Assembly (NCBI RefSeq): GCF_056746865.1
Contig: NZ_CM163382.1
DNA length: 64,000 nucleotides
Strand: one strand, 5' to 3'
Of the stretch, positions 10,520 through 10,858 are shown piece by piece; position 1 is the first letter of the stretch; each line of letters begins with the position of its first letter. Under the pieces are notes generated by a model. It did not search any database and was not told the origin of the DNA. It was given only the letters and a program-made list of their open reading frames with translations. Both the position numbers and the translations under genes were made by a program.

Positions 10520-10573
10520 AACGTTTTACCTTACCTGGTTGAACCGTTGTTATTTTGGGCGATATGTTATGTA

Positions 10574-10588
10574 AATTGGTCAACCATT
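10574..10588. promoter_or_regulatory. Candidate GntR-family (UxuR/ExuR) operator in the gntP-uxuA divergent control region
   Basis: Imperfect palindrome AATTGGTCAACCATT with TGGT..ACCA half-sites typical of FadR/GntR-type operators. The motif is seen in sequence; its function is inferred. Confidence 0.35.
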
Positions 10589-10858
10589 GTTGCGATGAAT
10601 GTCACATCCTCTGATCAATAACCATCGATTACCCTTTGCTGCAATTTGCAGCAACAACCATGAGAGTGAAATTCTTGTGATGTGGTTAACCAATTTCAGA
10701 ATTCGGGTTGACATGTCTTACCAAAAGGTAGAACTTATACGCCATCTCATCCGATGCAACGCCACGGCTGCGGTCTGGTTGTTCATCCGGATACCTAAAC
10801 AACTCCAGGGTTCCGCGTCTCTTTGCTGTGGAACCCACTATGTGAAAGAGGAAAAATC

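Follow-up and report, generated by a model that had tools for sequence, protein, structure and literature searches.

Analysing a window of 64,000 nucleotides, we find that the palindrome at 10574-10588, in the spacer between the divergently transcribed gntP and uxuA genes, is the core of an operator (O1) and not a chance dyad. Very probably, the gntP-uxuA control region carries two UxuR-type operators, O1 being the gntP-proximal one, and a third (O3) stands upstream of uxuR. The earlier note had proposed a UxuR/ExuR-type operator at this place, and that identity holds: the motif matches, the site is conserved, and published work shows that UxuR binds the spacer and that deleting uxuR derepresses gntP and uxuAB.

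The window is a segment of the E. coli chromosome. Its region 10400-10980 is 100% identical to many E. coli chromosomes, K-12 MG1655 derivatives among them, and was found, annotated as gntP and uxuA, in 5404 of 5426 complete E. coli genomes. Positions 5223-17223 correspond to MG1655 4546000-4558000 at 99.975% identity. This is the part shown to align, and the window is not colinear with MG1655 throughout: the lgoR-lgoD-opgB block is missing from it. The genes that concern us are the following.

gntP, 9176 to 10519, minus strand: GntP-family permease (NCBIfam NF007459, 908.7 bits against a cut-off of 647; RefSeq annotation)
uxuA, 10859 to 12043, plus strand: mannonate dehydratase (TIGR00695, 794.6 bits; RefSeq annotation)
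uxuB, 12124 to 13584, plus strand: fructuronate reductase / D-mannonate oxidoreductase (NF011611, 1127.7 bits; annotation)
uxuR, 13799 to 14572, plus strand: GntR/FadR-family repressor (NF007588, 583.1 bits against a cut-off of 442; annotation)

The GntP and UxuA proteins match their NCBIfam equivalog models over the full length, and the uxuR product reaches only 251.8 bits with the ExuR model, below its cut-off of 396. In the NC_000913.3 annotation, GntP is a fructuronate transporter and UxuR is a DNA-binding transcriptional repressor. Gene models and RefSeq agree on the 339-bp intergenic span (10520-10858) that had been described between the divergent gntP and uxuA genes; the start codons are an ATG at 10519 on the minus strand for gntP and an ATG at 10859 for uxuA. 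The uxuR gene lies 3 kb downstream of the gntP/uxuA operators.

We find AATTGGTCAACCATT at 10574-10588 exactly as it had been described, and it is the single exact copy in the window. The imperfect TGGT/ACCA palindrome is thus real, but the 15-mer was placed half a base off centre, because the dyad axis runs between 10581 and 10582 (TGGT-CA-ACCA). The natural unit is therefore an 18-mer. Three such sites stand out.

O1, 10573 to 10590, unstranded: gntP-proximal UxuR-type operator AAATTGGTCAACCATTGT, which includes the palindrome 10574-10588
O2, 10679 to 10696, unstranded: uxuA-proximal UxuR-type operator GATGTGGTTAACCAATTT, found by consensus search, weight matrix and conservation
O3, 13626 to 13643, unstranded: UxuR-type operator TATTTGGTTGACCAGTTT upstream of uxuR, between uxuB and uxuR

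O1 differs from the consensus AAATTGGTNNACCAATTT by two mismatches. Searching the 64 kb for this 18-nt consensus with up to three mismatches, we obtained three matches against 0.44 expected, and none of 100 shuffles gave three. All three matches fall within the two uxu-flanking intergenic regions, which together make up about 550 bp of the window. We also built a weight matrix from 51 sites of non-Escherichia loci; it ranked O3 (19.9 bits), O2 (19.7 bits) and O1 (18.6 bits) first, second and third in the window, while the best score in 50 Markov-simulated windows was 12.5 ± 2.0 bits and the largest was 17.9. A weaker site (9.9 bits) neighbours O3 at 13606-13623, 20 bp away. Another weak matrix match, at 57757, was treated as chance, because lgoR-lgoD-opgB is absent and the match therefore has no lgo context.

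The structure of O1 can be written as AAATTGGT-CA-ACCATTGT, which fits an A/T-rich palindrome with TKGT and ACMA boxes. O1 and O2 are inverted relative to each other: the perfect AAATTGGT half of each points outwards, and 106 bp separate the two centres. When compared with the UxuR operator 18-mer AAATTGGTATACCAATTT, O1 is equal at 14 of the 16 specified positions; the two departures lie in the uxuA-facing half (CCATTGT instead of CCAATTT). O1 also has a hexuronate-gene context, as it stands between gntP and uxuAB with uxuR in the locus.

To follow conservation, we aligned the spacer of seven sequences, from E. coli, a second Escherichia lineage, E. albertii and Citrobacter (four sequences). 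O2 had 16 of 18 columns invariant, the highest conservation rank in the spacer. The invariant columns numbered 13 of 18 in O1, 12 of 16 in the CRP-site 16-mer on its right, and 23 of 29 in the uxuA -35 to -10 block. O1 is thus kept in the orthologous intergenic regions of E. albertii and Citrobacter, at 13 of 18 columns compared with 4 of 69 in the spacer stretch 10607-10675. The loci of E. albertii and Citrobacter also keep O3. Among five divergent E. coli strains, chosen down the identity ranking, 13 positions of the 339 bp vary, none of them in O1 or the adjoining 16-mer, and the only change in O2 affects its outermost base and goes towards the consensus. This makes one change in 36 operator bases against 1.4 expected if changes were even, a sample too small to discriminate. 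The polymorphism within E. coli (five strains, too few for significance) is consistent with constraint.

Scanning for UxuA with one genome per species gave us 80 loci. Within 600 bp upstream of uxuA the motif density was 1.46 per kb, compared with 0.20 per kb elsewhere, a 7-fold difference across the 80 species, and many of the matches counted as elsewhere stand upstream of neighbouring hexuronate genes. The UxuR-type motif occurs upstream of uxuA in many genera; Escherichia and Citrobacter are the only genera of the survey in which gntP and uxuA diverge.

Next to the operators we place sites for CRP and for RNA polymerase as follows.

10591 to 10606, unstranded: CRP site TGCGATGAATGTCACA, centre 10598.5, abutting O1
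10676 to 10691, unstranded: candidate second CRP site TGTGA-N6-TAACC, centre 10683.5, overlapping O2 and matching 8 of 10 consensus positions
10564 to 10569, minus strand: putative gntP -10 hexamer TAACAT (ATGTTA on the plus strand), identical in all seven aligned sequences
10708 to 10736, plus strand: putative uxuA promoter, with -35 TTGACA at 10708-10713 separated by 17 bp from a weak -10, GAACTT, at 10731-10736
13666 to 13694, plus strand: uxuR promoter GTGCCA-17-TATAGT, read from the sequence

The earlier note mentions neither O2 and O3 nor the CRP site beside O1. In MG1655 coordinates, O1 is at 4,551,350-67, O2 at 4,551,456-73 and the CRP site beside O1 at 4,551,368-83. This CRP site agrees with TGTGA-N6-TCACA at 9 of 10 positions. 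By sequence alone, the CRP consensus is not above chance (2 matches against 1.7 expected), and we accept the site at 10591-10606 for its conservation and for its identity with a ChIP-seq motif, not for its consensus match: TGCGATGAATGTCACA is, letter for letter, the MEME motif under the CRP ChIP-seq peak at gntP/uxuA in ETEC H10407 (PMC4287617). Multiple CRP sites have been stated for the gntP-uxuAB spacer (PMC3105977). From Vibrio to E. coli, a TGTGA is kept next to the operator.

Scanning 10450-10900 for consensus promoters and terminators gave no match, and no sigma-70 promoter was called in the spacer; we therefore infer the promoter positions from conservation and from CRP geometry. With TAACAT as the best -10 candidate, gntP transcription would start near 10557; counted from there, O1 would lie at -24.5 and the CRP site at -41.5, a class II position. 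The alternative gntP promoter, TTTACA at 10575-10570 with TAACAA at 10552-10547, would overlap O1 too. On the other side, uxuA transcription would start near 10744, so that the centre of O2 would lie at about -57 and TGTGA-N6-TAACC at about -61, the canonical class-I position of CRP. O1 is then about 160 bp upstream of the putative uxuA start. A module consisting of TGTGA, the operator, 11-12 bp and TTGACR is common to Vibrio, Photobacterium, Erwinia, Cedecea, Citrobacter and E. coli; in Vibrio and Photobacterium it reads TTGACG-17/18-(C/A)AATAT, in Vibrio with a good -10, to which the weak GAACTT of E. coli corresponds. For uxuR, the GTGCCA and TATAGT hexamers are listed for the spacer between uxuB and uxuR in a catalogue of RpoD constitutive promoters (PMC3946193), and O3 stands about 67 bp upstream of the start that they imply. 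Neither O2 nor O3 occupies the classical position for occlusion, as both precede their -35 hexamers.

How O1 and O2 work together is the question on which the readings come closest. At somewhat short of an even chance, we consider that O1 represses only gntP and O2 only uxuAB with no cooperativity or loop, the spacing simply reflecting two CRP-dependent promoters packed back to back. Each operator adjoins its own promoter elements and its own CRP-like site, and the FadR-type divergons include a large class with two sites, one for each operon (Suvorova 2015). UxuR is described as a homodimer only (PMC8092373), and a literature search gave no paper linking UxuR to looping. Against independence stands the distance itself. 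The centres of O1 and O2 are 106 bp apart in three Escherichia lineages and 104-105 bp apart in Citrobacter, yet the 69 bp between the CRP sites are almost wholly unconserved, the inter-operator DNA cannot be aligned between Escherichia and Citrobacter, and the uxuA leader differs by about 79 bp in length. In Cedecea, Enterobacter sp. Ag1 and two Erwinia species, the operator of the TTGACA module has its partner 102-104 bp downstream, beyond the promoter in the uxuA leader, and not upstream, and the divergent gene of Erwinia encodes an MFS transporter, not a GntP-family one. Moreover, an Escherichia lineage (L001) in which nanM-like genes replace gntP has retained O1. A spacing of 102-106 bp, about 10 helical turns, is thus found in four genera and two topologies. 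A three-site arrangement of another kind, with 111-115 and 31-34 bp, is likewise conserved in other lineages and cautions against making too much of this spacing.

A spacing that recurs in both topologies is suggestive of cooperative binding or of a loop some 10 turns long. Our tentative proposal, to which we assign a lower probability than to independent operators, is that UxuR/ExuR oligomers bridge O1 and O2 into a repression loop that would enclose both CRP sites, with a possible third box in the gntP leader. If true, this would be a FadR-subfamily example of looping in the style of lac and gal, and it would give a physical basis to the cooperative repression of uxuAB by ExuR and UxuR that genetics found long ago. 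The box is as follows.

10536 to 10546, unstranded: candidate auxiliary or ExuR-type box TGGTTGAACCG in the gntP leader, a TGGT/ACC dyad with a 3-nt centre

The box is kept in both Escherichia and Citrobacter, in the latter as a perfect TGGTTGAACCA, and in loci L004 and L006 of the 80-locus survey it scores about 14 bits by the UxuR matrix. Taken as an ExuR-type site (10533-10549) in the E. coli sequence alone, it is not above chance, as the degenerate 17-mer matches dozens of places equally well.

The earlier note had the single palindrome coordinate both transcription units. The UxuR control of the divergent gntP and uxuA genes stands, but coordination by one palindrome is too simple, because O1 is at the putative gntP promoter, about 160 bp upstream of the putative uxuA start, and O2 is at the uxuA promoter. 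That 10574-10588 is one operator shared by both units is improbable, even though one central site for both operons is common in FadR-type divergons (Suvorova 2015) and the SELEX study reports one peak in the spacer (PMC5934670). O2, which scores better and is better conserved, stands 106 bp away, and the figure legend of the same SELEX study mentions two UxuR sites within the same operons; its resolution does not separate O1 from O2 (PMC5934670). Coordination of gntP and uxuA most likely comes from the O1 and O2 pair.

Turning to the protein that binds, FadR-subfamily GntR regulators recognise A/T-rich palindromes with TKGT/ACMA boxes, and GT and AC are 3 nt apart for most of them, including ExuR, and 2 nt apart for UxuR (PMC4494728). 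Comparison with the known UxuR and ExuR motifs puts the palindrome on the UxuR side: it has TKGT/ACMA boxes and the 2-nt distance, as do all three operators (O1 TGGT-CA-ACCA, O2 TGGT-TA-ACCA, O3 TGGT-TG-ACCA). The E. coli uxaC/exuT and exuR sites have a 3-nt centre (AAGTTGT-ATG-ACAAGTT and AAGTGGT-ATA-ACAAATA). The ExuR-type site is a 17-bp dyad (AAnTKGT-N3-ACMAnTT, 3-nt centre), to which O1 and O2 do not conform, having a 2-nt centre. The survey shows the same division. Loci with a neighbouring UxuR homologue at least 70% identical to E. coli UxuR have 2-nt-centre sites upstream of uxuA, and in another group, where uxuA diverges from uxuB and has no such homologue beside it, the site is TATTGGT-ATA-ACAACTT at -23, with a 3-nt centre. 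From the 2-nt centre of O1-O3 and this cross-species pattern, we conclude that O1 is a UxuR-type operator; it shows each of the defining features of this type that sequence analysis can check.

The published work agrees with UxuR. In a synthetic promoter with AAATTGGTATACCAATTT inserted between -35 and -10, repression was UxuR-dependent and was relieved by D-fructuronate (PMC8092373). In genomic SELEX, purified UxuR alone bound one genomic place, the gntP/uxuA spacer, and glucuronate lowered the binding (PMC5934670). The action of UxuR at the uxuAB promoter is direct, and gntP, uxuAB and other hexuronate genes are activated both on glucuronate and in the uxuR deletion (PMC9369180, PMC10016265). 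UxuR and ExuR are described as autorepressors (PMC9369180), and the location of O3 upstream of uxuR fits the reported autorepression of UxuR.

We consider it unlikely that ExuR, or only a UxuR-ExuR heteromer, occupies O1 in vivo. The literature places the uxu operon under multiple regulation by the exuR and uxuR products, and ExuR may still bind O1, given the joint regulation cited there. However, the operator centres, the association of 2-nt sites with UxuR neighbours across species and the selection of the spacer by UxuR alone in SELEX all speak against ExuR as the occupant.

There is next to no chance that the palindrome is a fortuitous dyad or an operator for GntR, the LacI-family gluconate repressor: short palindromes with imperfections occur often and gntP was first named as a gluconate permease, but the motif statistics and conservation effectively refute chance, and the annotation of GntP as a fructuronate transporter opposes GntR. 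The GntR (LacI-family) operator-like dyad is ATGTTACCNGTAACAT, and with up to three mismatches it is absent from 10520-10858. The sole match to ATGTTACCNGTAACAT in the window is inside uxuA, at chance level. An RNA element was dropped as an explanation, since an Rfam scan of 10300-11100 gave no match and the fold of the uxuA leader is unremarkable (z = -1.74).

With UxuR as the probable occupant of each operator, we propose the following mechanism. In the absence of hexuronate, UxuR dimers (GntR/FadR family) would sit on the operators. ExuR is a paralogue of UxuR and, by classical genetics, acts together with it. Read towards gntP, O1 follows directly on the CRP site and is probably inside or at the gntP core promoter, from which position the repressor should block RNA polymerase and perhaps CRP. 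As either gntP promoter candidate overlaps O1, the repressor should occlude the core promoter beside its activator. At the other end, O2 shares bases with the candidate class-I CRP site and stops 11 bp short of the uxuA -35 TTGACA; a repressor bound there should therefore act mainly by anti-activation, keeping out CRP or the alpha-CTD. D-fructuronate, which would be formed from glucuronate and also be imported by GntP itself, would free the operators of the repressor, and cAMP-CRP would then drive both the gntP and the uxuA promoters. The expected outcome is a coordinate, catabolite-sensitive induction of the transporter and the enzymes, together with autoregulation of uxuR.

O1 resembles the known UxuR operators of Enterobacterales, which are AAATTGGTATACCAATTT-like, in its half-sites, 2-nt distance, gene context, nearby repressor gene and inducer, and in nothing material does it differ from them. 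UxuR operators are catalogued in RegulonDB and RegPrecise. Those of the hexuronate (Ashwell pathway) regulon were reportedly catalogued by Rodionov et al. 2000 and Suvorova et al. 2011, and the gntP/uxuAB control system is also said to be described in Rodionov 2000, Bates Utz 2004, Blanco 1986 and RegulonDB. We take O1 to be, almost certainly, the very site already listed for gntP; the exact operator strings gave no match in the searchable main texts of the literature. The ExuR operators (uxaCA/exuT, exuR) share with O1 a paralogous repressor, related TKGT/ACMA boxes, A/T-rich flanks and the pathway, but they have a 3-nt centre and TTGT-type boxes, unlike the 2-nt centre of O1 and O2. The sugar-acid switches of DgoR, LldR and PdhR, also of the FadR subfamily and with transporter and enzyme genes that diverge, combine by the same logic a repressor with an acid-sugar effector and CRP-mediated catabolite control, with other effector specificities and a 3-nt GT-AC distance in contrast to the 2 nt of UxuR. 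Two-operator loops are formed by lac O1/O3 (92 bp), gal OE/OI (about 114 bp) and the operator pairs of B. subtilis AraR (GntR family). Like these, O1 and O2 are two dyads about 10 turns apart around CRP-dependent elements, with their spacing conserved and the sequence between them not. The likeness is an analogy, as UxuR is described only as a homodimer.

A gntP/uxuAB divergon repressed by UxuR/ExuR and activated by CRP, with autoregulation of uxuR, is already known; the UxuR control of gntP and uxuAB and the CRP sites have been published (PMC5934670, PMC9369180, PMC10016265, PMC8092373, PMC4287617, PMC3105977). As this control is established in E. coli K-12, our result has little weight as a discovery, and it is useful as a positive control in which a real operator was found from the sequence only. 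Only the operator spacing of 102-106 bp in four genera and two topologies is mildly new. The result also puts coordinates on the two operators of the spacer, on the CRP site validated by ChIP and on the operator for uxuR autoregulation. Gut colonisation benefits from hexuronate use, and fructuronate biosensors employ UxuR, so that knowing the exact operator architecture is of some practical value. For the GntR/FadR family, the conserved spacing of about 104 bp is a hint that one of its regulators may repress in a cooperative or looped manner.

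The strongest dyad of the gntP-uxuA spacer lies between O1 and O2, the two UxuR-type operators of this spacer. It is a perfect 19-bp palindrome, TTGCTGCAA-T-TTGCAGCAA (10636-10654). We found a single mismatch in its E. albertii counterpart; the palindrome is degenerate in L001, an Escherichia lineage without gntP at the uxuA locus, and absent in Citrobacter. None of its 19 columns is invariant when Escherichia and Citrobacter are aligned. In the L001 lineage (Escherichia coli strain SCPM-O-B-8794; L001:1-3000), nanM-like (N-acetylneuraminate epimerase) and sialate-esterase-like genes stand in place of gntP. 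The breakpoint of this replacement corresponds to position ~10534 of the window, and both O1 and O2 are kept.

The gntP leader carries another box, TGGTTGAACCG (10536-10546), with TGGT/ACC boxes around a 3-nt centre, 40.5 bp from the centre of O1 and 22 bp from the gntP ATG. Judged by sequence alone, the E. coli box does not rise above chance. The box is conserved, its Citrobacter counterpart being the perfect TGGTTGAACCA. It may be an auxiliary or an ExuR-type box.

On the opposite side of the spacer, the uxuA leader includes a segment of ~79 bp (about 10762-10841) that is Escherichia-specific and missing from Citrobacter. A hairpin, GGGUUCCGCG / UGUGGAACCC, falls inside this segment at 10808-10836, and the fold of the whole leader gave z = -1.74. 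Scanning 10300-11100 against Rfam, we obtained no match for the uxuA leader.

Upstream of uxuR, a weaker UxuR-like site, TTACTGGTCAATCAAACT (13606-13623, 9.9 bits), precedes the UxuR-type operator O3 by 20 bp. The uxuR leader also contains a REP-like palindromic element, gccggataaggcgttcacgccgcatccggc, at 13731-13760.

A second uxuA lineage, with uxuA divergent from uxuB, was found in Enterobacter, Kosakonia and Kluyvera; Citrobacter has it as a second copy (L019-L057). In this lineage, the conserved ExuR-type sequence TATTGGT-ATA-ACAACTT has its centre 22-27 bp upstream of the ATG (e.g. L037:2969-2985). No UxuR homologue sharing >70% identity with E. coli UxuR was found nearby.

A multi-operator array with sites 111-115 and 31-34 bp apart recurs in Vibrionaceae, in Providencia and in one further lineage, L016 (L052:703-975, L047, L065, L070, L013, L016). 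In the Vibrionaceae arrays, a CRP site, perfect or nearly so, adjoins the middle operator, and in three of the four loci the ribosome-binding site of the gene downstream is directly preceded by an additional operator.

Elsewhere in the window, TGTGATTGAGATCACA (56044-56059) reads as a perfect CRP consensus core, a candidate site. The only stretch shown to align to the K-12 reference MG1655 is 5223-17223. The lgoR-lgoD-opgB block of MG1655 is absent from the window; therefore, the gene content of this strain differs from that of K-12 somewhere downstream (17224-64000).
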